Shown piece by piece: positions 14,523 through 34,691 of a DNA stretch of 64,000 nt. The position numbers and the translations under genes are program-made. Within the stretch, counting starts at the first letter, position 1. Every line of letters starts with the position of its first letter. The DNA lies in the IMG/VR virus record IMGVR_UViG_3300044445_000018, positions 1-64,000 of that record. The stretch is one strand, 5' to 3'. Under the pieces are notes generated by a model. It saw only the letters and a program-made list of their open reading frames with translations. It had not been told where the DNA came from and made no database searches. This DNA comes from a virus.

Positions 14523-15170
14523 TCACTTCTCCTTGGTCAGGGCCGCAAGGTGGTCTTTGTCCTCCGTCCAGATACCCGGTGCGCTCTCGAAGCGGGCACC
14601 GTGGGCGCCCTTGGTCTGATGCTGGTACTTCCCGTCGTAGGGGTTCTCCGCATCGGCGTCGAGCCAAGTGAAGATGAACTGGCAGACGGCGTCACCCTTC
14701 TTGTAGCTGACGACCTTCTCGGAGAAGTTCACCAACTCCAGCGTGGCGTTGCCGTGGAAGCCGGGGTCGAAGAAGGTATTGAACGCCGAAACGAAGACGC
14801 GAGCATAAGTGCTCTTGTCACAGACCGCTCCTCCGACGTCTGCTGGGAGATGGAAGTCTTCGACGGTGTACGCCAGCGCGTAGTGAGGCGGTTCGTTGCG
14901 GAGTTCGGACTGTAGGGCGGGTAGATCACGCAGCGCCCTCCACAGTCCTCGGATACTGGCGAAGTCCTGTCTCAGCAGCCAGTCTTTCCAGACGATGCCG
15001 GGGTGTCTCCCGAGAGTGAGGTCGTGATCGATGCTCGCATCGTAGCTCGCGTGACTGAGCCCCTTGCTGGCCCCGTTCACTCTGATCTTCTCGTTGAGGA
15101 ACGGCGAGATCAGCGGCACTTCCGTGTTCGTGCAGAGGTTGCGGATGCTCTGCCCTGTCAACTGCGTCAC
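14523..15170 (-). CDS. dcd: dCTP deaminase/dUTPase-fold protein
   Basis: FDPGFHGNATLELVN signature and SYDASIDHDLTLG. GTG start. Confidence 0.75.
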   Translation of the reverse strand: MTQLTGQSIRNLCTNTEVPLISPFLNEKIRVNGASKGLSHASYDASIDHDLTLGRHPGIVWKDWLLRQDFASIRGLWRALRDLPALQSELRNEPPHYALAYTVEDFHLPADVGGAVCDKSTYARVFVSAFNTFFDPGFHGNATLELVNFSEKVVSYKKGDAVCQFIFTWLDADAENPYDGKYQHQTKGAHGARFESAPGIWTEDKDHLAALTKEK

Positions 15171-15373: not shown

Positions 15374-16834
15374 TCAGTTCTTGCTCAGGACACCCGGCGT
15401 ATTCGTGTCCTTCCAGCCAGCCATGTTCAGGTACACCTTGAGCAGGTGCGCGTTGGCTCGCTTGCCCACGGGGATGCCCTTGAACTGGGCAGCGTTCGTC
15501 ACGAATACACCCTGCTCCCGTGCGAAAGCCAAGGCGTCTATCGAGGTCTGTCCAGTCGCCTCGATCTTTGCCACGAGGTCTTTGTACATCTGCCCGCCGT
15601 CCGTCTGCTCCAGCCTCTTGCGGAGGTACACTTCCTGATCGTCCACGAGCTTCTTGACCACGTCCAGCGTCGGATTGTTGGCCGCGCTCTCCACGAGGTC
15701 TCGCCATGTCGTACTCTCCCACTGCTTGAACTTGGCCATCTGGCCTTTGTAGTCGGTCGCGAACTCCCGCACGATGGCATACGCCTCGACGTAGTCGTTG
15801 GCGCGGAAGGGGTAGTCCTTGCCGAGGAAGTCGGCCCACGGGTGCTTGGGCACGATCACGGGCACACCGAACAGCAAGGGCTCGTAGGTGGACAGTGAGA
15901 AGTCCTCCACTGTCGAGAGGTTAACCACGACGTGCGCTTTGCCCTTCAGGAGGGCGTGGAACTGATCGCGGTTGTTGTGCTGCACGTCCATGAAGTCGAT
16001 CTCGCCCACGTTGGACGAACCGCTGGAGGCCGAGTTCGTGGAGACGATGAAGTTCATCTGCTTCTTCGTCGTGACGTGCGAAATGGCGTAGTGGTCCCGG
16101 AAGAGTTCAGCCACTTCTTTGAAGTTGCGGGTCCCGGTCATCCGGCCTGCGAAAACGACGTTCAGTCCTTTCCCAGGCATCTTGATGGTATTCGTAGCGA
16201 GCCTGGAGAGCTTCACGGGGACGCACTCGTGTATGGTCTTCTGCAAATCGAGTGCCTTTGACGGCGTCAGCCACTGCTTGGCGATACGCATCACTTCGCG
16301 TTTCGACCAGAGGTTGTTGATGATCACCGCTCCAGCCGATTGGTAGGCTGCCAAGCTGGTCAAGTCCATGTTGCCTGAGGAGGCCCATGAGACCGTGTCT
16401 CGAAAAGAGAACACTGGCATCTCTTCCAGGCCGATAAACAGCCGTTGGGTCCCTTTGGGGTAATTCCCGACTTCCCGCCCGGCCACATTCCGCATGAAGG
16501 GCAGTTGCGAGATACGCGACGTGAGCACGACATCGAAGTCCCATACCGGTGTATCCCCTGGTGCGAGAATGTGGATGAGCGGGTCAGACAGCTTGAACTG
16601 TTCCTCGACACGGTCGGCTTGCAGGTACGGATACGGCACGAGATGCACGCAGTCCGGTCGGCGGTTGAGGAACTTCCATTCCTCTTCGTTGTTCTTCGAC
16701 GCCTCGGGGTACATCAGGTAGAAGAAGACGTCGTCGCTCTTGGCCCGCAAGCCTTCGATGATCTCCCACGCGAGGTAAGAGGTCGAGCACTTGTGCGCCT
16801 TGCCCGTGTAGATCGGGTCGATCAGGATTTTCAC
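15374..16834 (-). CDS. GT-B fold glycosyltransferase
   Basis: EDFSLSTYEPLLFGVPVIV (E-x7-E region). GTG 16834 after GAAAGG. The track N-terminus upstream reads as off-frame. Confidence 0.6.
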   Translation of the reverse strand: MKILIDPIYTGKAHKCSTSYLAWEIIEGLRAKSDDVFFYLMYPEASKNNEEEWKFLNRRPDCVHLVPYPYLQADRVEEQFKLSDPLIHILAPGDTPVWDFDVVLTSRISQLPFMRNVAGREVGNYPKGTQRLFIGLEEMPVFSFRDTVSWASSGNMDLTSLAAYQSAGAVIINNLWSKREVMRIAKQWLTPSKALDLQKTIHECVPVKLSRLATNTIKMPGKGLNVVFAGRMTGTRNFKEVAELFRDHYAISHVTTKKQMNFIVSTNSASSGSSNVGEIDFMDVQHNNRDQFHALLKGKAHVVVNLSTVEDFSLSTYEPLLFGVPVIVPKHPWADFLGKDYPFRANDYVEAYAIVREFATDYKGQMAKFKQWESTTWRDLVESAANNPTLDVVKKLVDDQEVYLRKRLEQTDGGQMYKDLVAKIEATGQTSIDALAFAREQGVFVTNAAQFKGIPVGKRANAHLLKVYLNMAGWKDTNTPGVLSKN

Positions 16835-16991
16835 GCGCTTGCCTTTCGGTAGACGCGCCAACCCCCATCGGTCTTGCGCGCAGTCTTGCGGTAGTCGATC
16901 CCCAGATGCGTGATGGCCTGGGTCAGTGTTCCGGGGTACTCGCGGATCGAAACGTACTGATCCGGCTCTCCGGGTGCTATAAGACAGCACA

Positions 16992-17486
16992 TCACGCGAG
17001 GGAAGAACATTGAGCCTCCTGCGTCAAGAAGCGTTTGCGGATACGAGAGCCGGGCACGTTCTTGCTGTTCTGGGACTTCGTGGCCCAGCGCAGGTTGCGA
17101 CGGCGACAGTCCAGGGTGTTCCCGTTGCGATGATCCCCGATGCGGTAAGGTCTCCGAGGGCCTTTCCACCGCGTGAGGATTTCACAGTGCAGGAACAGGT
17201 TCCCGTAGCGAGGACGTCCCGAAGGCAAGAACCCGTCGATCTGAACAGACCGGCGGGCATAGATGCCATCAGGGCGCTCTAGGGCGTTCATCCAGGGCAG
17301 GTACTTGCCTGACCCGTACGTGTGGCACCAGAGGAAGTCTTTGGCCCACACGTAGTCTTGGTAGTCGAGCAGGACGTTGAGGTCCCACCGGTTCGACAGG
17401 CAGATCGCGAAGGTCGCGTCCGGTGCCGGTTCCGTGTCCCACGTCCTGGGATCGAATGGATCAGCCAGTAGCAAGTCTTCGAACAT
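16992..17486 (-). CDS. HNH homing-type endonuclease
   Basis: GDHRNGNTLDCRRRNLRWATKSQNSKN. Free-standing, between the glycosyltransferase and methyltransferase-like genes. Confidence 0.75.
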   Translation of the reverse strand: MFEDLLLADPFDPRTWDTEPAPDATFAICLSNRWDLNVLLDYQDYVWAKDFLWCHTYGSGKYLPWMNALERPDGIYARRSVQIDGFLPSGRPRYGNLFLHCEILTRWKGPRRPYRIGDHRNGNTLDCRRRNLRWATKSQNSKNVPGSRIRKRFLTQEAQCSSLA

Positions 17487-17514: not shown

Positions 17515-18198
17515 TCAGATCGGCTCGACTTGCAGCGCGAGACGGAAGGCGTACGGTTCGACCCCTTGCACGTCGGAGTAGCAGGGCACAGACAGAACCG
17601 ATGTCACCGCGAGGTTTTGGTCTGCCAGAACCTCACGATAGGCGGCGATAGCGTCTTCCTCGCTGATGATGCCGTGGGAGCCCACGTCGTAGAACGATGC
17701 TCGCGCTGCCATCCATTTCTTGTAGTTGAACTCGGCGTACTCGTCGTAGCCGTGGGACCCGACCTCCTCCTTGTTGTAGGGCCGCTTGTTCACGTACAGA
17801 ACGATCAACGCCTTGGGCTTGAGCATCCCCTTGATGTGCCGCAGCACGTCGAAGTGCTCGATATGAGCGATCCCGAACGCGTCGTTGTGAATGCCCTGGG
17901 GCGTGTCGATCACGACCATGTCGTACTTGTGGGTGCAGCCACCCATGCTGGTGTACGAACAGCCGATGATGATCTCACGCGGATTGAACTTCTCCAGGGC
18001 CGGACGGTGCTCGGCGTTCAATTCCCACAGGTCGAGGTTGTTGATCTCGGTGTAGTAACGGCTGACGGTGAGCGCCCCATCACGGGCGAACATGTCGAGT
18101 GCATCGGGACCGATCTCGTAGAAGCCGAACAAGGCGTCGAAGAACAGCTTCGCACTGAGCTTGTCCGCGCCGGTCACGTCACAGGTACGAATTTTCAC
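17515..18198 (-). CDS. Rossmann-fold methyltransferase-like protein (RsmD/DNA-MTase-like)
   Basis: Motif I-like LDMFARDGALT. Motif IV position reads VVIDTPQG rather than DPPY. Confidence 0.4.
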   Translation of the reverse strand: MKIRTCDVTGADKLSAKLFFDALFGFYEIGPDALDMFARDGALTVSRYYTEINNLDLWELNAEHRPALEKFNPREIIIGCSYTSMGGCTHKYDMVVIDTPQGIHNDAFGIAHIEHFDVLRHIKGMLKPKALIVLYVNKRPYNKEEVGSHGYDEYAEFNYKKWMAARASFYDVGSHGIISEEDAIAAYREVLADQNLAVTSVLSVPCYSDVQGVEPYAFRLALQVEPI

Positions 18199-18213: not shown

Positions 18214-19260
18214 TTACGAGCGAAGGTGACGAAGGATTTCGTCGGTGGTTTGGCCTGCGTACATGCCCTCGTCAAGAGGCAAGCAAGCAAACATGGACGC
18301 GACAAGCTCCGCGCCGATGTATCTGCGCTCAGTCGTCAGGTTAAGCGCAGAGATCAACTGGTCGGAAGTCTGGTAGACATGCCCCGAGAACTTTTTGATC
18401 CCGAGACAATCTGCTTCGAGGCGATCCACCGGGTACTTGTACCAGTTGCGGTGGTGGGCTCTGGCGAAGCGGTTGATGGGCTGGATGATCTTGCCGAGTT
18501 GGTGAGCCGCTTCCTCCCGCTTCTCCAGAAGCTCGTTGAGGCGCTTCATCTGGAGGTAGCCGACTGCCGCCGTCCATTCATCCATGCGGAAATTGAAGCC
18601 TCCGCTGCGGTGGCGAAGCACGCCCTCCTTGTCCCGGTACTTCCCGTAGTTGCGGAACTCGCGGCAAGCCTGAAGGAAGTCGGGGTCGCGGCTCACGATG
18701 ATGCCCCCCTCACCCGCAGGCACGGCCTTGGTCGGGTAGAGGGAGAACACCGCACCCTTAGACATGCGGCCGGGTCCGAAGATGCTGTTGACCCTGACGC
18801 CGAGGACGTGGGCCGCATCCTCGAACAGGGGAATGCTGCGCGCCATACAATACGCTGCGATCTGCTCGTAGTGTCGAGAGATTTTGCCCCCAACGTGAGT
18901 GAGGATCACGGCCGAGGGCTGCACAGGTTGGACTTCGAGGTCGTTGACGCACATGGACAGGTCGTCCGGTGTACAGTCAATGGGGATGACGCTGTAGCCC
19001 GCTTCGATAGGCATGGCCCCGGTGGCGAAGAACGTGTTGACGGGGACCGCGACAGGTTTCCCCACCGCGACCCCCGACATACGCAACATGGTGTAGAGGC
19101 CGGTGCCTGCCGAGTTGACAGCGCAGGCGGGAATGCCGCCCCACGCCTCGACGGCCTCTTCGAGAAGCCTGACGTACTTGCCTTCTGTCAGGTGCCCCGA
19201 CAGCCTGATCTCGTCCCAGGCTGCATGGAGGTCTTTCGGATCGACACCGACCACGCTCAT
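18214..19260 (-). CDS. DegT/DnrJ/EryC1-type PLP-dependent sugar aminotransferase
   Basis: AVNSAGTGLY and FSLYPTKAVPAGEGGII (Lys region). ATG 19260 overlaps the upstream stop (TAATG). Confidence 0.8.
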   Translation of the reverse strand: MSVVGVDPKDLHAAWDEIRLSGHLTEGKYVRLLEEAVEAWGGIPACAVNSAGTGLYTMLRMSGVAVGKPVAVPVNTFFATGAMPIEAGYSVIPIDCTPDDLSMCVNDLEVQPVQPSAVILTHVGGKISRHYEQIAAYCMARSIPLFEDAAHVLGVRVNSIFGPGRMSKGAVFSLYPTKAVPAGEGGIIVSRDPDFLQACREFRNYGKYRDKEGVLRHRSGGFNFRMDEWTAAVGYLQMKRLNELLEKREEAAHQLGKIIQPINRFARAHHRNWYKYPVDRLEADCLGIKKFSGHVYQTSDQLISALNLTTERRYIGAELVASMFACLPLDEGMYAGQTTDEILRHLRS

Positions 19261-19444: not shown

Positions 19445-20395
19445 TCAGATGTCCTTTCCGTAGAAGCGCAAAGCGTTTGCGCGGTGGTCGGGGGAAAGCT
19501 GGTCGATGTACTCGACCGTTTTACGAATACTGTCCTCGAACGGGACGACGGGCAGGATGCCTTCGCCTTCCCAATAGGACATATCCGCAACCAGATTGAC
19601 GCCGGGCTTCTCGCCTTCGCGCATGGGCACGTTGACGATCTTGGACCCTTTGTCCTTGTAGCGGTACTTCTCGTTGACGATACGCAGGATGGTGTGCGCC
19701 GCGTCCTGGCACGAGATGGCCTTGCCCGAGCCCAGGTCCACGACATCGGCACGACGGCCGAGATTGCGACACGCATGGACGGTCAGGGCGGACAGGTCTT
19801 CCACGTCGATGGGGTCGATGGTCTGCGATCCGTCGCCGTAGACTTCGAGGTCGAAGCCGTACATGGCGAACAGGATCATCATGGGCAGGAACTTCCGCAC
19901 CGGGTACAGGTGCTGGTACGGGCCGACCGCGTTGAGCCAGCGGACGGTGGCCACTTCCATGTCGTACTTCTGCTGGTAGAGGCGGCCGACGAGTTCACCC
20001 GCGTGCTTGGTCAGCGTGTACGAGTTCTCGTCGTAGCCGTCGAAGTGAGGCTTGGCGACGTTGTAGACCCGCTTGACCCCGGCGAGACGGCACGCGTCCA
20101 TGACGTTGTTGGCGCCGACCACGTTGGTCTCACAGGCGAGGCTGGAGATCGCGATCAGTTCCGACGTGCCGAGGATGCCCGCCAGATGGTAGACCTCGTC
20201 CACGCCCTTGAGCGGGGCCAGCAGGGAGGACAGGTTGCGGATGTCCGCGTAGTGGAAGCTGGCCTTCGGCGGCATCCGAACCTGGGGCACCGCGACGTCG
20301 ATCAGGACAAGCTCGGTCTCGGGTTCGTACTTAGCGAACCACAGCATCAGGTTCGTACCGATGAAGCCTGACGATCCGGTGATGGCAACGCGCAT
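19445..20395 (-). CDS. NAD-dependent sugar epimerase/dehydratase (SDR)
   Basis: ITGSSGFIGTNL (GxxGxxG) and YTLTK (YxxxK). Confidence 0.8.
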   Translation of the reverse strand: MRVAITGSSGFIGTNLMLWFAKYEPETELVLIDVAVPQVRMPPKASFHYADIRNLSSLLAPLKGVDEVYHLAGILGTSELIAISSLACETNVVGANNVMDACRLAGVKRVYNVAKPHFDGYDENSYTLTKHAGELVGRLYQQKYDMEVATVRWLNAVGPYQHLYPVRKFLPMMILFAMYGFDLEVYGDGSQTIDPIDVEDLSALTVHACRNLGRRADVVDLGSGKAISCQDAAHTILRIVNEKYRYKDKGSKIVNVPMREGEKPGVNLVADMSYWEGEGILPVVPFEDSIRKTVEYIDQLSPDHRANALRFYGKDI

Positions 20396-20399: not shown

Positions 20400-21041
20400 C
20401 TATGCTTCCTTCAGATATTTGACATGATAGGCTTCGGCATACTCGGCTCCGCACTGACTGCCCCACACGCGAGCTTGTGCAATTAAGTTCACTGGTGAGC
20501 GGGGTCCTTCGGTGCGGCTCTCGGTGGTGTAGCAGGCCATCGCCTCGATCTTCTTGTCCATGACCTCCTGTGTCATGGGCAGGTAGAAAGAGGGTTGCCG
20601 CACAATACCGTCCAGAGCGAAGAACTCAAGGACGCGGTCGATCTTGCCGAGATTGATCGGACGCAGGGCAATACCACAGACGTGGTTCAGATGTCGATGG
20701 TCTTGATTAAGATCATCACCCGCCGGGATGATGACTTCATCCGGCTCGAAGTTCTTCAGAGCCCATTCGATCTTGCGCAGCAGATCGTAATAACCGACTT
20801 TTCCTGGCTCTCCTTCGGTAGAGGGGCGTCCTGCCGAGACCTCTACGAAATCGAGTAGCTTCTTGGCTTTGAGGAAGTCGGGATATTCCTGCTGCCAGCC
20901 ATCCTTCTGGCCGTGGAAGTACGCCCTGGTAAAGACGACGAGGACGAGAACGTCGATGCCTTCACGACGACGGGCCTGAATGAGGCCCGCGCATGAGATC
21001 GTCTCGTCGTCTAGGTGGGGGGCGATGATCAGCGTTCTCAT
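20400..21041 (-). CDS. PIG-L/LmbE family N-acetylglucosaminyl deacetylase
   Basis: IIAPHLDDETISCAG motif. ATG 21041 in ATGA overlap, 9 nt after GGAGGA. Confidence 0.75.
   Translation of the reverse strand: MRTLIIAPHLDDETISCAGLIQARRREGIDVLVLVVFTRAYFHGQKDGWQQEYPDFLKAKKLLDFVEVSAGRPSTEGEPGKVGYYDLLRKIEWALKNFEPDEVIIPAGDDLNQDHRHLNHVCGIALRPINLGKIDRVLEFFALDGIVRQPSFYLPMTQEVMDKKIEAMACYTTESRTEGPRSPVNLIAQARVWGSQCGAEYAEAYHVKYLKEA
20477..20492. promoter_or_regulatory. palindrome GTGCAATTAAGTTCAC (intragenic, near 3' end)
   Basis: Inside the deacetylase CDS (codes VNLIAQ), 82 nt upstream of the epimerase ATG. Confidence 0.8.
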
Positions 21042-21277
21042 GGTTTCCATTCCTCCATCTGTGTCAGCAAGGGTTCAGCCATTTTGAGGTAGTGCTGCTG
21101 TTCGAGCACAGTGGCCTGTACCCAGGCTTTGTTGCGCTCGTGCATGAGAAGAACACCCGCGACGTAGACTAATCGCCGGTTGCGCAGACGCTTTTTCTGA
21201 CCCTCTTTGCGGTTGCGCGGGACGAGAGGGCCGTTGAGGAGTTCGGCTCTGGTCGCGAGCTTCACTTCGCGGCCCAT
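21038..21277 (-). CDS. hypothetical basic protein (79 aa)
   Basis: Co-directional ORF that overlaps both neighbours by a few nt. Confidence 0.4.
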   Translation of the reverse strand: MGREVKLATRAELLNGPLVPRNRKEGQKKRLRNRRLVYVAGVLLMHERNKAWVQATVLEQQHYLKMAEPLLTQMEEWKP

Positions 21278-22386
21278 TTGCGCTTCTCGTTCAGGATGTG
21301 GATGTTGTCGTACACGATCTGGATGGTCTCAGGCGTGCATAGTTCGGGAGGCAGTCCCTTGCCGAGCATGAAGTTGTAGTCCTGAAACCACTTCATGTCT
21401 TCGAGGGTGGAGGACATGATGCGACGACTGACGCAGCCGCCCTCGGCAATGAAGATCAGCGCGCCCATGGGACCCTTGGTCTTGTCCCACGGGATCATGC
21501 TGAACTGCTCGTGCTTCGTGCAGAGGTGCGTGTGGAAGGCTTTGCTGGCCTTGTTGCCCTGCATCGTGTGCATGTCGAACGCATACGACGGGACGGACTT
21601 GATCTCTTCCACGGGCGGGTAGGCGTCGTCTTGTATGCTGTCGGCCTCGCTGCCGTCTGCCTCTTGGAACATCCGCATGGTGGGGAATAGCGCGAGGGAC
21701 ATGCTGTCGGCGGTACGCTCGAAACTGAGCATGGCAGCCCGTTGCCACGCCACGTCGTGCAGGTTGTCACGGATCACGAGCAGGGCTTCGGTCAGCGCCT
21801 CGATCCCGCCCCCGCGCAGTTTCTTCCGCAGCACACAGGCCGCGATGTAGGAGAACATCGGGTTGGTCGAGGCGAGCACTTGCAGAAGCACGCCCGTGTC
21901 CATGCTGGGCATCTGACGCCACATCTCGGGGTAGTCAGACGGGACTGGCCACGGGGGCTTGGGGTTGCCGTCCTTGTCGGTGCCGTCCGCCTGGATGTCA
22001 CAGCCGAGGGACAGTTCACAGCAGGAGCGGGTCTTGTCCGCGACACAGGCACGGGAAATGAGGCCCGCGTACAGCATCTCGGGCTCCATCTTGTCGCGCA
22101 CGGACTTGAGCGTGCATTGCGTGGAGTAGGCCACGAGGTCGGGATCGCCGAAGCCGATGTCTTCGATGATCATCGTGGCGAGACCCTGCCAGCAATACGT
22201 GTCGTCTGCCGTGTAGACGTACTCACCCATACGCAGGGCTGTCTGGATGTCGCCGCGTCGGATGGACTTCTGGAGGGCGGACTTGACCAGCCACTTGTTG
22301 TTGGCGTTGGACAGGGAACGAGGCGAAAACCCCGGTGCCTGGGCACAGAGGTCTTGCATCTCGTCATAGATGGGATCGTCTGCCAT
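21262..22386 (-). CDS. protein with MgsA/RarA C-terminal-like helical domain, no AAA+ module
   Basis: SALQKSIRRGDIQTAL...MIIEDIGFGDPDL resembles KSxRGSD...EDIGxADP of MgsA_C. Confidence 0.45.
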   Translation of the reverse strand: MADDPIYDEMQDLCAQAPGFSPRSLSNANNKWLVKSALQKSIRRGDIQTALRMGEYVYTADDTYCWQGLATMIIEDIGFGDPDLVAYSTQCTLKSVRDKMEPEMLYAGLISRACVADKTRSCCELSLGCDIQADGTDKDGNPKPPWPVPSDYPEMWRQMPSMDTGVLLQVLASTNPMFSYIAACVLRKKLRGGGIEALTEALLVIRDNLHDVAWQRAAMLSFERTADSMSLALFPTMRMFQEADGSEADSIQDDAYPPVEEIKSVPSYAFDMHTMQGNKASKAFHTHLCTKHEQFSMIPWDKTKGPMGALIFIAEGGCVSRRIMSSTLEDMKWFQDYNFMLGKGLPPELCTPETIQIVYDNIHILNEKRKWAAK

Positions 22387-22412: not shown

Positions 22413-22781
22413 TTAGAGTGTATCACTATGGTCGGTCTGTGAAAGGTAAAAGTCGCTGTTGATGACCCAATGCTCGACAGTGACGTCTCTCCCCTCAGAC
22501 CGCAGCTTGGCCCCGAGCAGTTCTGCCAGGACCACGGAGCGGTGCTTGCCGCCGATGCAGCCGAAGCCGACTGTCTTGCCGTGACAAGCCGCAAGGTAGC
22601 CGCGCTGCACGAGGTCTTCTGTCTCCACGGCTTCCTTGACGTACGCCTGGACCTTGGGATCGAGGCCGTTCAGGTGGCGCAGCGCCGGATCGCTGTGCGG
22701 GTTGGGGAGGACGCGGCAGTCGATGCGCATGTCCACGATCTTTGGAGCCCCGAGGCGATAGCTGAAACTAACGATCTTCAC
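22413..22781 (-). CDS. stand-alone RapZ (YhbJ) C-terminal domain homologue
   Basis: VSFSYRLGAPKIVDMRIDCRVLPNPHSDPALRHLNGLDPKV and GCIGGKHRSVVLAELL match the RapZ C-terminal domain. No P-loop N-domain. GTGA overlap with the upstream stop. Confidence 0.75.
   Translation of the reverse strand: MKIVSFSYRLGAPKIVDMRIDCRVLPNPHSDPALRHLNGLDPKVQAYVKEAVETEDLVQRGYLAACHGKTVGFGCIGGKHRSVVLAELLGAKLRSEGRDVTVEHWVINSDFYLSQTDHSDTL
22417..22444 (-). promoter_or_regulatory. possible sigma70-like promoter TTTCAC-16-TACACT
   Basis: Overlaps the 3' end of the RapZ-like CDS. About 30 nt upstream of ATG 22386. Confidence 0.4.
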
Positions 22782-22966
22782 GCGGTCTTGTCCTTCTCGA
22801 TGATGCGCTTGAGCGCCGTATGGTTGCGACGGAGGATGGCTTTGGCAGCGTCGTCCCGCAGAAGCAATTGGGTCGGGATGATGAACTGACGGAACTTGCC
22901 TGTCGCTTTGTGGCGCAGCGTCGTGACGTCTCCGTTGCGGGTCAGGATGTAGTTGGCGTTTTGCAT
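22778..22966 (-). CDS. hypothetical small protein (62 aa)
   Basis: Strong SD AAGGAGGG upstream of the ATG. Confidence 0.55.
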   Translation of the reverse strand: MQNANYILTRNGDVTTLRHKATGKFRQFIIPTQLLLRDDAAKAILRRNHTALKRIIEKDKTA

Positions 22967-22991: not shown

Positions 22992-23019
22992 AGTATAACC
23001 CCTAGGGACGTGGTGTGAA
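22992..23019 (-). promoter_or_regulatory. sigma70-like promoter TTCACA-16-TATACT
   Basis: The -35 overlaps the palindrome at 23015..23030. Confidence 0.5.
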
Positions 23020-23030
23020 GTTAATTTCAC
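23015..23030. promoter_or_regulatory. junction palindrome GTGAAGTTAATTTCAC
   Basis: Contains the TGA stop of 23027..23500. Confidence 0.85.
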
Positions 23031-23500
23031 TCGATGGCGTCGAAGGCGTCGTCCTTCACGTCGTTGAGCTTCACGCCCCAGGAAATCTGAGCAAGCCGAC
23101 ACGCAGCCCCGCGCACCGACAACGGGTAGTCGCCTCCCCGCAGCCGATACAATGACCCCGTTTCGAGGTCTTCCTGAGTGAACAGGTGCTTGTGTGGGTG
23201 TTCGACGTCTTCCCAGTTGTCGAGCATTTCCTTCGCGATCTGGTCGTACAGCGCGTCGGACAGCAGCGACTTGTTGTGGATGTAGTACAGGTAGCTGGCC
23301 ATGCAGAACCACGGCACGATAGCCATGGGTGCGAGCTTGATCGCCGCACGGCACTCACCGTCCAGCACAGGCTCCACACCGATTGGCGGCGCCGGTTTGG
23401 GCGCAGGCGGCATGATCGGCGCCTTCTTGGGTATGACGAGCGGTGCCGCCACGGGTACGGGAGGCGGGGCGGCGGTGCCCTTCTTGATGATCCTGATCAT
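23027..23500 (-). CDS. hypothetical protein: MIRIIKK leader + Pro/Ala linker + helical domain
   Basis: ATGA overlap at 23497-23500. The N-terminus duplicates that of 23497..23847. Confidence 0.5.
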   Translation of the reverse strand: MIRIIKKGTAAPPPVPVAAPLVIPKKAPIMPPAPKPAPPIGVEPVLDGECRAAIKLAPMAIVPWFCMASYLYYIHNKSLLSDALYDQIAKEMLDNWEDVEHPHKHLFTQEDLETGSLYRLRGGDYPLSVRGAACRLAQISWGVKLNDVKDDAFDAIE

Positions 23501-23847
23501 TTCTGGGGGAGGCTCCGGTAATGCTTGCCATTCATGCACTCTTGCGACTGCGCGGCATTGCAGGGCTTGATGTACCACTGCTTGCAGTGATCGCACTCCT
23601 TAGCCTTGGCGCCCGGCGGGGGCACGCCACCCCACCGCTTGATGCGCTCGGCATCAGTCAGATCGGAGTAGTGCGTGGGCTGGTTCCCAGAAATGGGCTT
23701 GGGAGGCGCCTTGGGCTTGATCGGGATGCGGAGGCCCCCGTTGGGGACGACAGCCGCTGGCGGGGCTGCTGTGGGGACTACAGGGGCCACGACAGGTGCC
23801 GCGATGGGCGGGGCTACGCCGGGGGTCTTCTTAATGATCCTGATCAC
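23497..23847 (-). CDS. hypothetical protein: MIRIIKK leader + Pro/Ala linker + Cys-rich C-terminus
   Basis: GTG start after AGGGAG. C-terminal CDHCKQWYIKPC. Confidence 0.5.
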   Translation of the reverse strand: MIRIIKKTPGVAPPIAAPVVAPVVPTAAPPAAVVPNGGLRIPIKPKAPPKPISGNQPTHYSDLTDAERIKRWGGVPPPGAKAKECDHCKQWYIKPCNAAQSQECMNGKHYRSLPQK

Positions 23848-25786: not shown

Positions 25787-25818
25787 AAAAGCAAAGAACC
25801 CAGCCGGTGAGGGCTGGG
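25787..25818 (-). terminator. intrinsic terminator
   Basis: Minus strand CCCAGCC-loop-GGCTGGG followed by TTCTTTGCTTTT. Confidence 0.7.
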
Positions 25819-25839
25819 CTCCGAGGTCAGACTACTTGA

Positions 25840-26202
25840 TCAGCCGTCGTCATCGACAAGGCGGTACATGGCCGCCACGAACATGCTCTTGGCCACGTCG
25901 GGGTGGTCGGCCGGAACGAGTTCCCAGGTCCCCGGCGTCTCCCCGCGTTCCAGCCTGAACTTCTCCAAGATCGAGGTCGCGAACTTGACCCCTTCCTCGA
26001 ACGTGCCGGTGGCGACCCGTCCCTCGGTGATCTTGTCGATGTACAGTTGGTTCGAGAACGTGGGCCCCGCCACCGTCGCGAGTTCGTTGGTGGAGCACAT
26101 GTGTCCCCGCGTGACCGGTGCCTTGGTCCGCAGGATTTCGATGCAGCCGTCCACCCCCTTCGTGAACGCGCTGACCTTCGGGGCTACTCGGACTTTTCCC
26201 AT
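25840..26202 (-). CDS. hypothetical protein (120 aa)
   Basis: ATG after GGAGAG. Confidence 0.5.
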   Translation of the reverse strand: MGKVRVAPKVSAFTKGVDGCIEILRTKAPVTRGHMCSTNELATVAGPTFSNQLYIDKITEGRVATGTFEEGVKFATSILEKFRLERGETPGTWELVPADHPDVAKSMFVAAMYRLVDDDG

Positions 26203-26214
26203 GGTCGTCTCTCC

Positions 26215-27489
26215 TTACGCCGCCTTCTGGGGCGGGATCGTGGCGCGCTGCTCGGCAGTCATGTTGGACGTGAAGCCCGAACCCCAGATGGTCGTGACTT
26301 CGTCGTTCGTCAGGAGACGGCCGAGAATGAACTCGCAACACAGCCGCTGGAAATCGCGATAGTCCATCGAGAAGTTCAGCAGGCGGTTGTTGAACGGAGA
26401 CTGGTAGCTGCCCGCATCGAAGAACGCGGCGCTGCTGGCGCGGTAGTCGAGCACCTTGCCGACGATGTCGGACTTGCAGGTGGGTCCCCAGGCGTAGGCA
26501 TGGCAGGACTGGCCATGGTCGGCGCCGAAGTTGCCGTTCTCGCGCATCGTGCGGTGGAACTCGGTCATGGTGGTGAGCATCACGCGCTGGGAGTTGCCGC
26601 TCTGCTCCATGTCGTAGATGAAGGCTTCGATTGCGTCCGAGAACGTCGCCATCATCAGCGCATGACGGCGAGCGCCACGCGGGGTGTTGATCGAGCCACC
26701 GGCATCGGAGTGGTGATCCCAGCCGTCGTAGTCACAGCAGATGTACCGGGCCGGCACGCCTGCGATGATCATCCGCGCCGCGTCCCGCAGCTTCTGCGAC
26801 CAGCTATCCGAAGGATACTTGGGCGCATTGGCGTTGAGGTCCGAGGGCGTCTGAGCGGGGACCGGAAGCGAGCCGAGACCTTCGTTGGTGTCGAGCATCG
26901 CCATTGCCGTGGCGCGACCGGTGACGGCCTCCACGTTGGTCGCCGAGGGAGCGGCCTTCATGAACTTCTTGGCCAGGGCCACCGGCTCGGGCAGCAGAAG
27001 CGGGACGACGCTCTTGGTGGACGCGTACGTCGAGACAAGACCGATGACAGACCGGGTCGGCGCGTTGCCGAGCGAGATCAGATCGAGAGGCGTCGCGACC
27101 GGCGGCTTGAAGAGGCCGGCGAACCGGTTCATGTAGCCCGAGTTCAGGAAGTTGTAGTTGACGCCGCCGCAGTCGATGCGGCCCTGCTCGTAGAAGTGCG
27201 AGCGGGTGGCGGCCGGCGTGCCGAGGGTGAAGAACGCCGTCATCGCGTAGGACGGGTGGTTCCACCGATTGGTCATGGCCTTGAAGCGGGTGTTGAGCCC
27301 GTAGCCCTTCTGGCCTTCCAGTTCGATGGTGTCCGCAATCGCTGCGTGCGAGTTGGGGAAGCGGTTGGCCGAACGGTAGTCGTCCAGCCAGGAGACGCCG
27401 GGGATCGACTTGTGGGCGACGATCTCGTTCGTGCCCATGGCTGCACCACGGCGGAAGATGCAGACTACGATACGCTGGTCGTTTGCCAT
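26215..27489 (-). CDS. DUF1501 (sulfatase/alkaline-phosphatase-like) family protein without Tat signal
   Basis: VVCIFRRGAAMGTNEIV, TRSHFYEQ, GWDHHSD and TEFHRTMRENGNFGADHG match DUF1501 landmarks. The protein starts directly at the mature domain. Confidence 0.75.
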   Translation of the reverse strand: MANDQRIVVCIFRRGAAMGTNEIVAHKSIPGVSWLDDYRSANRFPNSHAAIADTIELEGQKGYGLNTRFKAMTNRWNHPSYAMTAFFTLGTPAATRSHFYEQGRIDCGGVNYNFLNSGYMNRFAGLFKPPVATPLDLISLGNAPTRSVIGLVSTYASTKSVVPLLLPEPVALAKKFMKAAPSATNVEAVTGRATAMAMLDTNEGLGSLPVPAQTPSDLNANAPKYPSDSWSQKLRDAARMIIAGVPARYICCDYDGWDHHSDAGGSINTPRGARRHALMMATFSDAIEAFIYDMEQSGNSQRVMLTTMTEFHRTMRENGNFGADHGQSCHAYAWGPTCKSDIVGKVLDYRASSAAFFDAGSYQSPFNNRLLNFSMDYRDFQRLCCEFILGRLLTNDEVTTIWGSGFTSNMTAEQRATIPPQKAA

Positions 27490-27501
27490 AGATCAGGGTC
27501 C

Positions 27502-29298
27502 TTAGGCTGCGTAGAAGGAGAGGTCGATGCTGGTCACAGCGCGGAACAGTTGCTGGAGCTTCTTGCGAAGCGCCTCGCTGTTCCAGTCGGTCACAGTATC
27601 GAGCGGCATGGCCAGATGGTCGTACAGCGTCTGCAACTGGGCCGCAGTGCCACGATCTCCGAACCAGTAGTGGTTGATGTCCTCGATCAGCTTGCGAGGC
27701 GTGTTGAGCCCTCGACCCTGTAGGTAGCCGGTGTAGTTCACACAGAACGACGCTTGGTTGTTCTGGTTGTTCGGCAGAGAGAAGCCGGTGCGGTAAGCAC
27801 GTTCCGCAAGGTGTCCCGGTGCGAGCCAGTAATCCGGCACGTCGGGGAAGCCTGCGGGCGTCTGGTACGTCAGCGTGTTGTACTCTTCCTTCTCGCAGTA
27901 GCCCTTGATGATGGCCACGTCGCGCTCGGAGAAGAAGCCTTCGCCGAAGTAGTTCAGGAACTTCGCCCAATACTGGATCGGGGTCGAAGTCCGCTTCGCG
28001 GTCGAGTAAGAGCCGCAGAAGTCCTCCGAGAAGAACAGGACGCGGAGCACCTGGGCGATCTGGTCGGGGGCCTTGGCGGTCTCCACCCACTTGTCGATCA
28101 TCTTCTCGCGGAGAGCCGGGCTCGGCTTCACGCCCATGAACCAGATCGCGATCTTGGTACACATGAAGCGGGCGGCGGGCCGATGCGTGGCGAGCATGTC
28201 GATGAACAGGCTGGCCTCGGGGCAGAGGTAGTAGCCTTCGACACCGCGACCCTGCTTCGCAGAACTGAACTCGAAGCCGGGGAAGAAGGTGAAGAACTTC
28301 GGGTCGTGGTCGTGTAGCTTCGGCCAGTGCCAGCCAGTCTGCTGGTGCGAGTTGTACTGGTGGACGCCGGTCGCGTTGTTCCAGTAGATCGCAGGCTCGT
28401 CTTCGCCGAACTGCTTGTCACCCCGCGTGTACGGCCCACGGATGTGCAGCGGGTCGTCATCGATCTTGAAGCCGGCCTCGTCCTTCTTGATTGTCCGCGT
28501 GCCCTGTCCCGAGAAGAGGCGGGTACATTCGATGACGTCCACCACCTGATCGTAGTGCGGAGGCTCGTCTTCGTCGCCGATGCCGAGGAAGAACAGTTCG
28601 AGCACTTCGCGGCCCAAGTTCTCGTTCGGGGCACCTGCGATGTTCAGGTAGTTGTCCATGAAATACTGGAGAACGGCGGTGCGGAGGAAGTGCTTGCCGA
28701 GTTCCGCCGCGTTGCCGAGGCCCTTCTTGAAGCAGGCGTCATCGAACGCCGTCAGACCCGCGAACCGCGTGTTGGCGCGGATTTGGTAGCCGGTCACGAA
28801 GTGGTTCACCCAGAACTCGTGCATCATGGACTGCACGTTCTGACGGCTACCCGCGAGACGGGCGACGTGAAGGGCCTGCGGTCCCAGGTCGTCCGAGAAG
28901 TGGTAGTCCACCATCTCGAAGCCGAGAGGCCACGTCTGGTACTTCCGCTTGGTGTTGACGTCGTGGAACGCCGGGTTCAACTGCCGGTCGATGTACTGCT
29001 CGACGCCGAGAGCGATGATCTCAGCTTCGTCCTGCGGGCCGCCGAACGCGATCCGATCACGGGTCCGCGCAACACTGGGAACGAAGGCCGGACGAACGCT
29101 GGCCGACTGCACGATATCGGTCACATTGGTGATCTTGGGCGACGAGCCTGTGACGTTGGTAGCTGTCTCGATGCAGCGAAGACGACAACCGACGTCGTCG
29201 CCCACGGGGATGTAGGTCAGGTTGGTGGCGCCTGGAATGGCGGTCCAGGGCTCACCAGACCCGAAGTTGTCTCGCTGCCACTGACGGGTGATCTGCAT
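27502..29298 (-). CDS. DUF1800 family protein with an N-terminal Ig-like half-repeat shared with the fibre protein
   Basis: MHEFWVNHF and NENLGREVLELFFLGIGD...YDQVVDVIECTRLFSG match DUF1800. The N-terminal RQWQR..IPGATNLTY..DVGCRLRCIETATNVTGS matches repeats in 29373..31739. Confidence 0.7.
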   Translation of the reverse strand: MQITRQWQRDNFGSGEPWTAIPGATNLTYIPVGDDVGCRLRCIETATNVTGSSPKITNVTDIVQSASVRPAFVPSVARTRDRIAFGGPQDEAEIIALGVEQYIDRQLNPAFHDVNTKRKYQTWPLGFEMVDYHFSDDLGPQALHVARLAGSRQNVQSMMHEFWVNHFVTGYQIRANTRFAGLTAFDDACFKKGLGNAAELGKHFLRTAVLQYFMDNYLNIAGAPNENLGREVLELFFLGIGDEDEPPHYDQVVDVIECTRLFSGQGTRTIKKDEAGFKIDDDPLHIRGPYTRGDKQFGEDEPAIYWNNATGVHQYNSHQQTGWHWPKLHDHDPKFFTFFPGFEFSSAKQGRGVEGYYLCPEASLFIDMLATHRPAARFMCTKIAIWFMGVKPSPALREKMIDKWVETAKAPDQIAQVLRVLFFSEDFCGSYSTAKRTSTPIQYWAKFLNYFGEGFFSERDVAIIKGYCEKEEYNTLTYQTPAGFPDVPDYWLAPGHLAERAYRTGFSLPNNQNNQASFCVNYTGYLQGRGLNTPRKLIEDINHYWFGDRGTAAQLQTLYDHLAMPLDTVTDWNSEALRKKLQQLFRAVTSIDLSFYAA

Positions 29299-29325
29299 AG
29301 TCTGCGCCTCGCGCTAGGGTGCTTC

Positions 29326-29357
29326 AGACGAAGAAACCCCCCGCCGTGAGGCGGGAG
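29326..29357 (-). terminator. intrinsic terminator after the fibre/adhesin gene
   Basis: Minus strand CTCCCGCC-TCAC-GGCGGGGG followed by TTTCTTCGTCT. Confidence 0.6.
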
Positions 29358-29372
29358 GCTCCTGGGGTTGGC

Positions 29373-31739: not shown

Positions 31740-31752
31740 TAAGGTCGGTTCC

Positions 31753-32406
31753 TTATGCGACTTTGAGGAGGGGAGTGCCGTCCACGTTCAGCAAGACCGT
31801 CCCATCGACGTTCTTGAGGACGTTGTCGTTGACCGGCTGCTCGATGGGGGTGTTGGCGGTCTGCATGTAGACCGTCTGGGAGATGGGTCCTTTCCCGCTG
31901 GTGTTGAGCGCCGTCACCCGGAAGCGGTAGGTCGTGCCTTCCGCGAGCCCGGTCACAGTGCAATTAACGTCACTCGTGCTGGCGACGAAGGTCGTCCAGG
32001 GGGACGAGCCGCTGCTGCGCCGGTACTCGACCTTGTATCCGGCCGGGGTGCCGCCGCGCTTCGGGGGCTTCCACGCCAGCGCCACGGACTTCGTGGTGAT
32101 GCTGACGGCACGAAACTCATCGACCGGGCCCGGCATGGGCACGTCGGACGCCACGGTGTCCGTGGTGAAAGCGATGATGGTGGTGGGGGCGAACTTCGCC
32201 TTGGCGAAGACCTTCTGACCGGGGAAGTTCACGGGCAGGTTGGGGAGACGATTGTCGAGGGTGAGCCCGTCTCGCGACGTGGCATCCGGCATCGTCTGGC
32301 CGATGTAGACAAGGACGGGGTTAGCGTCTGTCAGGGTGAGCGTCACGGGAGAAGTCCCGAGATCGACCCACGCACCTGGGATCAGGTTCTTTTTCGCGGT
32401 TGACAT
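31753..32406 (-). CDS. fibronectin type III domain structural protein
   Basis: VSITTKSVALAWKPP...YKVEYRR...TVTGLAEGTTYRFRVTALN. ATG 32406. Confidence 0.6.
   Translation of the reverse strand: MSTAKKNLIPGAWVDLGTSPVTLTLTDANPVLVYIGQTMPDATSRDGLTLDNRLPNLPVNFPGQKVFAKAKFAPTTIIAFTTDTVASDVPMPGPVDEFRAVSITTKSVALAWKPPKRGGTPAGYKVEYRRSSGSSPWTTFVASTSDVNCTVTGLAEGTTYRFRVTALNTSGKGPISQTVYMQTANTPIEQPVNDNVLKNVDGTVLLNVDGTPLLKVA
31958..31973. promoter_or_regulatory. palindrome GTGCAATTAACGTCAC (intragenic)
   Basis: Inside the FN3 CDS (codes SDVNCT), about 220 nt upstream of the fibre gene start. Confidence 0.8.
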
Positions 32407-32435
32407 ACAGGGGGACCTCGTCTTGGGACAGTGCG

Positions 32436-32464
32436 TCCGTACGAAGCCCCCCATTTTTTGTCAA
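32436..32464 (-). promoter_or_regulatory. possible promoter TTGACA-17-TACGGA
   Basis: Intergenic, upstream of the FN3 gene. Confidence 0.35.
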
Positions 32465-33859: not shown

Positions 33860-34165
33860 CTAGCGGGGGAATGTGAAGCCCGCAATCAGTGCAGCAGCAA
33901 TGCGACTTCTCTGCGTAGGATCAGCCTCTGCTTTTAGACGCTTCGTCCTGACCTCCTGCAATGTCTCGGTCGGCTCTGCTTCTAATTCGTAACCTAGATA
34001 CTCAAGTACAGTCTCGATGATCGTGATGTCACCGCCGCCGTCTTGCTCGATACGGCGTAGTGTAGACCTGTTGACAGACGTGGCCGATGCAAGCTGTCGT
34101 TGAGACAACCCTTGCTGCATCCGCAGATCGACAATCAACTTGCCCCAGAACATCGGATCGGCCAT
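33860..34165 (-). CDS. XRE-family helix-turn-helix transcriptional regulator (101 aa)
   Basis: QGLSQRQLASATSVNRSTLRRIEQ HTH. ATG 34165 lies 11 nt after the GNAT stop. Confidence 0.75.
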   Translation of the reverse strand: MADPMFWGKLIVDLRMQQGLSQRQLASATSVNRSTLRRIEQDGGGDITIIETVLEYLGYELEAEPTETLQEVRTKRLKAEADPTQRSRIAAALIAGFTFPR

Positions 34166-34176: not shown

Positions 34177-34605
34177 TCAGAACTGGAGAACGTGGGTCTT
34201 GGTCTTGGGCGCCATCTTCAGGGCGTACGTCGCGTGGGTCATCTCGGCGTTGCCGAAGGACATGTCCACGACAATCCGGTTGATGCCTGCCTTCCGCCCG
34301 ATGAACTTCAGATGCTCGAACATTTGCCGGAAAGCGCCCTGACGACGGCTGGTCTGCTCGACGTAGGCTAGGGTGACTTCGTAGGAACGGTGATCCATCT
34401 GCTCGTACGTCAGGATACCGACGATGTCCTTGGCCTTGGCGTCGATAGCCAAGATCGCAGGGCTGTTCAGATCGACAGGATACAGACCCTCGGGCCAATG
34501 CTCCAAGCCCGCCTGCATGATCTCGTGGCAGCCCTCGTAGACGACAGACGCACCCTGCGACGAGCCAACGTGATCGACGTCTACGATAGTGAACTTTTCC
34601 GACAC
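34177..34605 (-). CDS. GNAT family N-acetyltransferase
   Basis: VTLAYVEQTSRRQGAFRQMFEHLKFIGRKAGINRI (motif A). GTG 34605 is 5 nt after AAGGAGGG. Confidence 0.6.
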   Translation of the reverse strand: MSEKFTIVDVDHVGSSQGASVVYEGCHEIMQAGLEHWPEGLYPVDLNSPAILAIDAKAKDIVGILTYEQMDHRSYEVTLAYVEQTSRRQGAFRQMFEHLKFIGRKAGINRIVVDMSFGNAEMTHATYALKMAPKTKTHVLQF

Positions 34606-34625
34606 CGTGACCCTCCTTGGCCTTA

Positions 34626-34641
34626 GTGCAATTAATGTCAT
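34626..34641. promoter_or_regulatory. junction palindrome GTGCAATTAATGTCAT
   Basis: 7 nt upstream of the GNAT SD. Confidence 0.85.
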
Positions 34642-34691
34642 TCCTGACTTAGGACCCGACTGCGTGCGTGTCAATCGGGTCCGTGGGATTG

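Follow-up and report, generated by a model that had tools for sequence, protein, structure and literature searches.

A phage-encoded RapZ C-terminal domain without its N-domain: a core gene of a ~100-kb lineage and a candidate partner of an XRE-type regulator

What is the C-terminal half of RapZ doing, on its own, in a phage genome? The question is raised by a gene for a 122-amino-acid (aa) protein in a 64,000-nucleotide (nt) stretch of viral DNA (positions 1 to 64,000 of IMG/VR record IMGVR_UViG_3300044445_000018). This stretch, which we call the window, has a GC content of 60.6%, carries every credible gene on the minus strand and, with terminase-like, ParB-like, RecA, RuvC and PolA genes, is part of a one-strand phage genome. 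An earlier, sequence-only reading of the DNA had assigned the product to the RapZ/YhbJ C-terminal domain (CTD), placed it at the head of an amino-sugar module and proposed that it could act as a decoy or dominant-negative that deregulates the amino-sugar supply of the host. The assignment holds, the gene turns out to belong to the backbone of a phage lineage and not to the sugar genes behind it, and we tentatively propose that its product works with a helix-turn-helix (HTH) regulator of the XRE type.

The gene occupies positions 22413-22781 on the minus strand exactly where it had been described, with 122 codons and a stop. Its GTG start at 22781 overlaps the TGA of a 62-aa upstream open reading frame (ORF) in the sequence GTGA (22778-22781), and a Shine-Dalgarno-like GAAGGA lies about 9 nt 5' of the start. 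The GC content at its three codon positions (0.66/0.39/0.77) resembles that of the adjacent genes, and a 99%-identical 122-aa product, the sole match in a word-indexed single-protein search, is called on a 101,273-bp JGI contig. By its start and putative ribosome-binding site, its codon-position GC and the near-identical copy elsewhere, the ORF is a real gene.

Residues 2-105 of the product match positions 4-118 of the 121 of Pfam PF22740 RapZ_C (E=5.8e-27, 94.7 bits with a cut-off of 27), a phmmer search of the PDB finds the E. coli RapZ CTD 5O5S (E=3.2e-16), PHROG 18111 is matched with E=1.3e-14, and the motifs SFSYRLGAP, DCRVLPNPHSDPALRHLNGLD and GCIGGKHRSV are all found in the protein. The NCBIfam RapZ equivalog NF003828 is matched only over positions 163-275 of 278 (86 bits versus a cut-off of 244), so the C-terminal half alone is encoded. 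A single-sequence AlphaFold2 model was unusable (predicted local distance difference test, pLDDT, 44) and a model based on a 96-sequence alignment was used instead (pLDDT 93.1, predicted template-modelling score, pTM, 0.85). Compared with the PDB by Foldseek, this model has RapZ in all of its best 17 matches (template-modelling score, TM, 0.80; root-mean-square deviation, rmsd, 2.0 A; 36-37% identity). No N-terminal P-loop NTPase domain (Pfam PF03668, Walker A/B) was found, as the ORF begins at the CTD, and the preceding ORF is unrelated. Both parts of the original assignment, the RapZ/YhbJ CTD and the missing P-loop domain, are thus borne out by profile, sequence and predicted fold: the phage protein is a RapZ CTD without the N-domain.

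Such stand-alone domains (hereafter RapZ-C) form a family. When 1.84 billion cluster representatives were searched exhaustively with HMMER, 2916 relatives came up, and among the top 150 of them 106 measure 95-145 aa; at 122 aa, the window protein is a single-domain phage protein in the size range (~105-130 aa) of the PHROG 18111, RcZahn gp140 and SEA-PHAGES type. Viral loci encode a single domain in 88 of 89 cases, and among the matches listed from the genome collection all 80 loci encode two domains. There the N-domain is in frame, with a strict Walker A pattern in 68 loci and variant patterns, five of them inspected, in 12; these listed matches are two-domain cellular RapZ only and have little bearing on stand-alone prophage copies. 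The span from N-P to C-x-G-G-x-H-R-S, taken without alignment, is 67 residues in 80 of the 80 listed cellular loci, while in viral loci its median is 58, mostly 56-58. The window protein has gaps at positions 227-234 of E. coli RapZ, as do 89-97% of 96 stand-alone members and none of 16 two-domain CTDs. The stand-alone signature further comprises the absence of R238, a Cys at position 183 and the loss of T248, which is otherwise invariant, and of the aromatic residue at 191, and about ten residues in all (227-234, 238-239 and 241) are missing relative to E. coli RapZ. Within the 96 stand-alone proteins N27, P28, G39, C75, G78, H80 and R81 are invariant, D21, R23, V44, G77, S82, V83, E87 and H104 are conserved in at least 90%, and the pocket residue H29 is His in 72%; the pocket and core positions invariant in this set are likewise invariant in two-domain RapZ. 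As judged from these sequence comparisons, the phage protein comes from a separate virus-borne clade with a deletion of its own and is not a recent copy of host RapZ.

The family is already named in annotation, and the window gene is an added member of it. Matches occur in 74 GenBank phage records. Several with matches of the 115-residue type look like fragments of host RapZ or like host contigs, for example a Salmonella houtenae contig, a 2.4-kb 'Salmonella phage' record and the Enterococcus 'phage Efs 1-1-1', so that phage counts are slightly inflated. By Foldseek, the RapZ-C fold extends to giant viruses (Klosneuvirus, Yasminevirus, Pithovirus, Marseillevirus and others). The Klosneuvirus KNV1 protein A0A1V0SIZ8 (118 aa), for example, resembles the window protein in predicted fold and partly in size (E=1e-4, TM 0.72), but such proteins share only ~20% identity with it, come from viruses of eukaryotes and are likened by fold, not by motifs. 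The literature yielded no experimental work on the viral stand-alone family. One RapZ-C subfamily has N-P-W for N-P-H and a Cys-rich, zinc-ribbon-like N-terminal extension (P0078, P0105, P0072, P0124 and L236, 5654-6651); its member in L236 directly follows a dCMP deaminase gene in a phage-like array of small genes.

What has the trimmed domain kept of the machinery known from E. coli? Three studies (PMC5737377, PMC9841335, PMC7073468) describe a CTD pocket made of H190, T248, G249, H252 and R253, with C247 adjoining, and show that GlmZ binding and cleavage are abolished by H190A, G249W, R253A, K170A and even C247S. The same studies found sulfate or malonate in this pocket in crystals and RNA backbone phosphates in the cryo-electron microscopy complex, and proposed it as the site of glucosamine-6-phosphate (GlcN6P). 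They also report that the CTD alone forms a dimer via strand 179-182 and binds GlmY and GlcN6P, that W191 docks the N-domain, and that combined mutation of K270 and the tail residues K281, R282 and K283 abolishes RNA binding. The corresponding elements of the phage gene are as follows.

22413..22781, minus strand: stand-alone RapZ C-terminal-domain gene, 122 aa, GTG start, assigned by Pfam PF22740, PDB 5O5S and AlphaFold2/Foldseek
22536..22559, minus strand: P-loop C75-I-G-G-K-H-R-S82, equivalent to E. coli C247-S254, the phosphate/ligand pocket with a C-x5-R-S pattern
22695..22703, minus strand: N27-P28-H29 loop, equivalent to E. coli N188-P189-H190, of which H190 lines the pocket (PMC5737377, PMC9841335)
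22719..22730, minus strand: strand M18-R-I-D21 (predicted), equivalent to the E. coli CTD dimer strand Y179-V-F-D182 (PMC5737377)
22416..22460, minus strand: 15-residue acidic tail (NSDFYLSQTDHSDTL) at the site of the E. coli basic RNA-binding tail, net charge -3, pLDDT 52-58

The RapZ CTD fold with its sulfate/malonate pocket is thus present. H190, C247, G249, H252 and R253 correspond to H29, C75, G77, H80 and R81 of the phage protein, and T248, which contributes only its backbone, corresponds to I76. Also kept with respect to E. coli RapZ (5O5S, 8B0I; ~36% identity) are G250, K251, S254 and D182 (G78, K79, S82 and D21, the last an Asp in 96% of the family), together with the basic residues at R184 and R196 (R23 and R35) and at K170 (here Arg). 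Unlike E. coli RapZ, the phage-encoded protein has lost R238 by deletion and has Ala in place of K194. Its C-terminus differs as well: the basic tail (consensus RxRxKNxQxRHRTxxKRK, with K270, K281, R282 and K283) is missing, and RSEGRDVTVEHWV and the acidic 15-mer stand there instead; more than 80% of family members stop before residue 114. The family is mostly basic (median isoelectric point 8.9) and the core of the phage protein has a charge of +3. The W191 position is aromatic in 94% of two-domain RapZ versus 11% of stand-alone proteins and is a Ser here, so that the contact of N-domain and C-domain in the tetramer is not conserved in the phage protein, and insertion into a host RapZ tetramer is not favoured. 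Of the RNA- and GlcN6P-binding residues on which the decoy proposal depends, those of the pocket are therefore present and those of the enterobacterial RNA tail are missing.

With which partner, then, might the domain work? In 16 loci of the lineage RapZ-C is preceded on the same strand, at a distance of 86-1830 nt, by the same XRE-type HTH gene, which usually has a GNAT gene in front of it, and the window contains both genes.

33860..34165, minus strand: XRE-type HTH gene (hidden Markov model E=5.9e-26), orthologue of the RapZ-C-linked HTH of the relatives, 11 kb upstream of RapZ-C
34177..34674, minus strand: GNAT acetyltransferase-like gene preceding the HTH gene and resembling a neighbour cluster with Pfam Acetyltransf_1

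The two are joined in the metagenomic proteins P0044 (206 aa) and P0103 (189 aa), in which an HTH_3 domain that shares 44-55% identity (E ~1e-20) with the unfused HTHs of the lineage is fused to a RapZ-C of the stand-alone type. The lineage gene order is kept around the fusions, one lying in the order GNAT, fusion, CapD-type dehydratase and MgsA_C-like gene, the other between a GNAT gene and, directly, a ParB-like gene on a contig of 41% GC. Further RapZ-C fusions bring Cys-rich, zinc-ribbon-like N-termini, which would fit an accessory domain of nucleic-acid-binding regulators. Following the usual logic of fusions, the HTH proteins point to RapZ-C as a ligand-sensing or oligomerizing partner of a DNA-binding regulator, and the XRE-type HTH, better supported than the sugar cassette, is most likely its functional partner.

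The reading that we favour, as plausible rather than probable, would make RapZ-C a regulatory module that dimerizes, binds a phospho-ligand and works with the XRE-type HTH of its lineage. The family has shed its ties to the N-terminal NTPase domain and to the enterobacterial small RNAs (sRNAs) and has retained the pocket, that is, a unit of strand, C-x-G-G-K/R-H-R-S loop and helix plus the N-P-H loop, along with the central basic residues. RapZ-C would supply the ligand-sensing and/or oligomerizing half of a transcription regulator and the HTH its DNA binding. The putative regulator would stand at the head of a rightward operon in which variable cassettes such as the amino-sugar one may be inserted, and which would continue into the dCTP-deaminase-like, ParB-like and large-terminase genes. 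The ligand might be a sugar phosphate (e.g. GlcN6P), a nucleotide sugar or a nucleic-acid backbone phosphate, and the protein would presumably dimerize, touch the HTH protein physically and thereby have a regulatory output. A bolder form of the same idea, which we regard as unlikely, is that RapZ-C proteins from phages to giant viruses are minimal phosphate-pocket modules and that here one serves as the metabolite-sensing half of a split or fused XRE factor, coupling the status of envelope precursors (of the GlcN6P or UDP-N-acetylglucosamine, UDP-GlcNAc, type, bound or turned over) to the late operon and its cassettes.

Several observations weigh against a joint regulator. The fusions amount to two clusters among 150 representatives, and the best 120 of a second search contain none. 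The HTH neighbourhood comes from one phage lineage only, and its proximity may thus reflect shared ancestry and not selection; outside that lineage, ~65 IMG/VR loci and the actinophages show no common neighbour. In the window the HTH gene is 11 kb off, with a terminator-like hairpin between it and RapZ-C. Position 19, which corresponds to the V180 needed for dimerization of the E. coli CTD, is an Arg in the phage protein, and because this Arg replaces the usual Val its dimerization is put forward only conditionally. Finally, the invariant Cys in a C-x5-R-S loop resembles an active site more than a sensor site.

The inserted block that separates the HTH gene from RapZ-C (25795-32454, minus strand), where the relatives have gaps of 0.1-1.8 kb, is unusual for a phage. 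It encodes an fn3 protein (233 aa), a 788-aa protein with He_PIG/Ig repeats, a DUF1800 protein (598 aa), a DUF1501 protein (424 aa) and a 120-aa ORF, and it ends in a strong terminator-like hairpin with an 11-bp stem (25795-25822).

Might the loop, then, be catalytic? In the model, C75-I-G-G-K-H-R81-S82 lies between strand 71-75 and helix 81-95 and has the form of a C-x5-R(S/T) loop. When a 45-column sub-profile was run against 177,635 PDB sequences, the matches after RapZ were mainly archaeal protein tyrosine phosphatases (PTPs), with E values (0.1-0.4) that are not significant. In these alignments the RapZ-C loop and the archaeal PTP loops were in register at the Cys, Gly-Gly, Arg and Ser, and these phosphatases were the only natural non-RapZ proteins in that set with a recognizable motif-level alignment. 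With the Thermococcus PTP (5Z59) helix, strand, C-x-G-G-x-x-R-S and helix align residue for residue, yet the overall fold is not detectably similar. No significant similarity to the phosphatase superfamily was obtained (PDB profile E 0.1-0.9; Foldseek E of at least 1.5, probability of at most 0.14), and a PTP loop in RapZ, YvcJ or HpaP is not described in the readable literature. A PTP-like reading of the RapZ-C pocket, drawn from the aligned motifs, is accordingly a lead and not a family membership. A loop of this kind would fit the lethal C247S and the 'chemically transformed' appearance of GlcN6P density in the CTD pocket (PMC9841335). It would likewise fit the reports, cited in PMC7525490 and PMC9742497, that full-length YvcJ and HpaP have phosphatase activity.

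RapZ-C could on these grounds be an autonomous, minimal Cys-dependent phosphatase or phosphotransferase that uses its C-x5-R-S loop on a sugar phosphate, a nucleotide or the terminal phosphate of a nucleic acid. The invariance of C75, G78, H80 and R81 with the conservation of G77 and S82 in at least 90%, the register with the archaeal catalytic loop, the inactive E. coli C247S and the frequent nucleotide-metabolism neighbours (dCTP-deaminase-like, dCMP deaminase and ThyX genes) all speak for an enzyme. We nevertheless consider it improbable, as neither the PTP matches nor the Foldseek similarity (best E ~1.5) is significant, no residue can be assigned as a general acid, the phosphatase activity of YvcJ and HpaP was not found assigned to the CTD in the accessible parts of the literature, and an HTH fusion would sooner be expected of a sensor domain.

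A second function suggested by the pocket is the one implied in SEA-PHAGES annotation, where members are called 'RNA binding protein': RapZ-C would be a generic binder of structured RNA that acts post-transcriptionally on phage or host RNAs, with neither sugars nor the HTH involved. The E. coli CTD dimer reads the shape of an A-form helix, with backbone phosphates in the pocket beside K170, R184, R196 and K251 (PMC9841335), and these four positions are basic in ~90% of both stand-alone and two-domain proteins, in keeping with a basic family. Actinophage members, such as Gordonia phage Tarzan gp64 and Streptomyces phage BabyGotBac gp56, are likewise single-domain proteins (128-131 aa, 36-45% identity) in lytic-cycle gene blocks, among early and replication genes. 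They differ from the window gene in their Actinobacteria hosts and in having replication, recombination and HNH neighbours and no sugar genes nearby, and their label is similarity-based only. The tail essential for RNA binding in E. coli is missing from the phage protein, which has an acidic tail instead (PMC5737377), R238 is deleted, there is no evidence of RNA binding for B. subtilis YvcJ (PMC7525490), and RNA binding alone leaves the invariant Cys unexplained. General RNA binding is, in our judgement, unlikely, even if it is the most probable alternative to a regulator acting with the HTH.

We turn to the sugar genes, at whose head the sequence-only reading had placed RapZ-C. Physically this is correct, since the block begins 26 nt downstream on the same strand. 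It runs from the gene of a 374-aa protein through a 79-aa ORF, PIG-L, SDR, a 60-aa ORF, a PseC-like aminotransferase, a methyltransferase-like gene and HNH to a GT4-like gene, and is followed by dCTP-deaminase-like and ParB-like genes and then by a gene whose product is labelled large terminase in relatives. The main features, from upstream of RapZ-C to the end of the cassette, are these.

22992..23019, minus strand: candidate sigma-70-like promoter TTCACA-16-TATACT in the gap 5' of the 62-aa ORF
22778..22966, minus strand: 62-aa ORF of no known family, translationally coupled to RapZ-C (GTGA overlap)
21262..22386, minus strand: 374-aa protein with, at its N-terminus, an MgsA/RarA C-terminal (lid) domain and no P-loop, first cassette gene (PDB 2QW6/2R9G, E=1.5e-8)
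20400..21050, minus strand: PIG-L family deacetylase (Pfam PF02585, E=3e-11; PHROG 11796, E=1e-33)
19445..20395, minus strand: SDR sugar-nucleotide dehydratase/epimerase (Pfam Epimerase, E=9e-27; best NCBIfam match dTDP-glucose 4,6-dehydratase, below cut-off)
18214..19260, minus strand: DegT/PseC-like sugar aminotransferase (Pfam PF01041, E=8e-50; PseC-like E=3e-41, below cut-off)
17515..18198, minus strand: 227-aa methyltransferase-like protein without a Pfam match, homologues annotated 'methyltransferase' (RcZahn) and 'Erm' (DLP_3)
15374..16990, minus strand: 538-aa GT4-like glycosyltransferase, last cassette gene (weak Pfam GT4 matches below cut-off; homologues annotated so in 7 phages)
14523..15170, minus strand: dCTP deaminase-like gene (Pfam PF22769, E=6.5e-15), directly following RapZ-C in cassette-less relatives

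The promoter is a candidate only, as a promoter and terminator scan of the region gave match counts no higher than chance. The 62-aa ORF has no Pfam or PHROG match and no homologue in related loci, and scans of the window with Rfam, a tRNA search and PADLOC found nothing relevant. The 374-aa protein was considered as a displaced RapZ N-domain or, following its label in RcZahn, as an 'AAA-ATPase', and was rejected as such: only the lid domain is detectable and no Walker A motif was seen. Its MgsA_C-like relatives lie 2-4 kb from a PIG-L deacetylase gene in ~20 otherwise unrelated IMG/VR phage contigs (L163-L219), which suggests an undescribed two-gene unit. The cassette SDR is 56-73% identical in relatives, and the aminotransferase probably starts at M24 of the mechanical ORF. 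The methyltransferase-like protein shares 48% identity with gp099 of Stenotrophomonas phage DLP_3, which is labelled 'Erm' (L222, 5649-6329); because its gene sits between those of a sugar aminotransferase and a glycosyltransferase, a sugar N-methyltransferase is more likely than an rRNA methylase. The HNH_3 endonuclease gene (16992-17486, minus strand), between the methyltransferase-like and glycosyltransferase genes, occurs in no relative and looks like a recent mobile insertion. A DNA-modifying role, which a weak GT4-conflict match and the dCTP-deaminase-like and ParB-like genes might recall, is backed by nothing else in the 64 kb, where no hydroxymethylase was found. Viral contigs gave no matches to the glycosyltransferase or the 374-aa protein as single sequences, and alignments were needed for both.

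Two further genes of the window deserve mention. A 189-aa protein (23027-23596, minus strand) combines a Pro/Ala-rich N-terminus with a stand-alone domain Ia of NAD+ ligase (Nlig-Ia, E=1.2e-8) and is kept in relatives 0.9-6 kb upstream of RapZ-C. A 714-aa protein (7558-9702, minus strand), encoded downstream of the terminase-like gene, carries a pyruvate-phosphate-dikinase ATP-grasp domain (E=3e-44) and a PEP-utilizing mobile His domain (E=2.5e-24), with 41-55% identity to counterparts in L014, L223, L224 and L226.

Does RapZ-C belong to the cassette behind it? The order RapZ-C, MgsA_C-like gene, sugar enzymes, glycosyltransferase is found in the window, in the phages RcZahn and RHph_TM16 and in the IMG/VR loci L003, L006, L011/L012 and L013, and also in RHph_Y1_11 from the positions of separate matches. 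The orthologues in the two named phages, RcZahn gp140 ('RapZ-like protein', 42% identity) and RHph_TM16 EVB27_119 ('ATPase domain-containing protein', 50%), have the same size and the same position 5' of the MgsA_C-like gene and cassette in ~100-kb one-strand genomes. They differ from the window in that their XRE-HTH lies 0.1-1.8 kb upstream; the RHph_TM16 cassette has no PIG-L and methyltransferase genes, and only the window has an HNH gene inside the cassette. No function has been published for either protein, and the RcZahn paper is silent on the gene.

The association is broken in both directions. Six close relatives (L004, L005, L007, L008, L010 and L014) have RapZ-C without any cassette gene, although their protein annotated as terminase (p702) has 50-54% identity, as high as in cassette-bearing relatives. 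In all of them except L010, which has no deaminase gene, RapZ-C is directly followed by the dCTP-deaminase-like gene, and the 7 contigs with the highly conserved cassette SDR include none of the cassette-less ones, some of which are 92-100 kb long (99.9 kb at most). Conversely, Stenotrophomonas phage DLP_3, Vibrio phage KarBoss, L163, L164/L230, L227 and L229 carry the cassette and lack RapZ-C, and the ~20 other phage contigs with a pair of MgsA_C-like and PIG-L genes have no RapZ-C either. Elsewhere RapZ-C lies among replication, recombination and nucleotide-metabolism genes, and an all-against-all clustering of the neighbours in 83 loci revealed no universal partner. RapZ-C therefore belongs to the backbone, as a core gene of the ~100-kb lineage of Rhodobacter phage RcZahn, Rhizobium phage RHph_TM16 and their relatives, and the cassette is an accessory insertion downstream of it. 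The amino-sugar link of RapZ-C is one of synteny in a variable region, not an obligate partnership. In four of the cassette-less relatives (L004, L005, L007 and L008) other variable genes lie between the dCTP-deaminase-like gene and the ParB-like one (~0.9-4.5 kb downstream of RapZ-C), among them one for a ~165-aa protein resembling DUF488 by eye and two for ~300-aa unknowns.

These comparisons bear directly on two readings that tie RapZ-C to amino sugars. It could be a dedicated sugar-phosphate or nucleotide-sugar subunit of the cassette, either a sensor or an accessory enzyme, acting with the MgsA_C-like 374-aa protein and the glycosyltransferase. The conserved gene order, the 26-nt gap without a detected terminator between RapZ-C and the 374-aa gene, and the ties of the RapZ family to GlcN6P or UDP-GlcNAc in E. 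coli and Bacillus (PMC7073468, PMC7525490) agree with this. The Bacillus subtilis protein YvcJ, which acts with GlmR, is like the phage protein a RapZ family member without the enterobacterial RNA tail and serves UDP-GlcNAc homeostasis without GlmZ, but it has two domains and its UDP-GlcNAc binding needs the N-domain Walker A that the phage protein lacks (PMC7525490). The co-occurrences, moreover, are all in one lineage and explicable by synteny, the cassette occurs, with or without its MgsA_C-like gene, in phages devoid of RapZ-C, and RapZ-C does without the cassette in the six close relatives and in ~65 unrelated phage loci. A dedicated part of the cassette is thus quite improbable, more so than an enzyme acting on its own.

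The decoy or dominant-negative proposed at the outset would titrate the ligands of host RapZ (sRNA, GlcN6P) or poison its oligomers, so that GlmS is de-repressed and the supply of amino sugars rises. All residues needed for GlmZ binding in E. coli and proposed for GlcN6P are present (PMC9841335), and since the E. coli CTD alone binds GlmY and GlcN6P and cannot activate QseE/F (PMC7073468, PMC5737377), a copy that binds ligand and is dead in output is conceivable. The enzymes 26 nt downstream plausibly use precursors of the UDP-GlcNAc type, and a sugar dehydratase also follows one HTH-RapZ-C fusion. As to the host, the Alphaproteobacteria that harbour the closest isolates encode two-domain RapZ, as such a decoy needs, whereas the window contains no GlmZ- or GlmY-like RNA (Rfam). 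To our knowledge, these sRNAs are restricted to enterobacteria. The missing basic tail, the deleted R238, the change of K194 to Ala and the lost docking aromatic all argue against a mimic, as does descent from a separate virus clade and not from a host gene. Homologues occur in giant viruses, whose eukaryotic hosts have neither the RapZ circuit nor RNase E; gene and cassette part company in the six relatives on one side and in at least six phages or contigs on the other; and a stoichiometric sink for a sub-millimolar metabolite appears implausible. The decoy mechanism gained no comparative support, has several features against it and is the least probable of the readings considered here.

We thus return to a phosphate-pocket module working, tentatively, with an XRE-type regulator. 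Viruses have isolated the RapZ CTD alone, without the RNA tail and the contacts to the N-domain, and in some cases have joined it to an HTH. Its pocket residues, including the essential Cys, are invariant across bacteria without GlmZ, which puts in question what the RapZ CTD does beyond the enterobacteria. For annotation the locus calls for caution in taking RapZ-C as part of a sugar pathway, the 374-aa protein as an 'AAA-ATPase' and the cassette methyltransferase as 'Erm'. The family offers a natural minimal system of 110 aa, with RcZahn and Rhodobacter capsulatus as a tractable pair, for studying binding or catalysis at the pocket. Should the domain sense amino-sugar phosphates, the phage would be reading its host's supply of envelope precursors; if it is a Cys-phosphatase-like enzyme, RapZ itself would be redefined.

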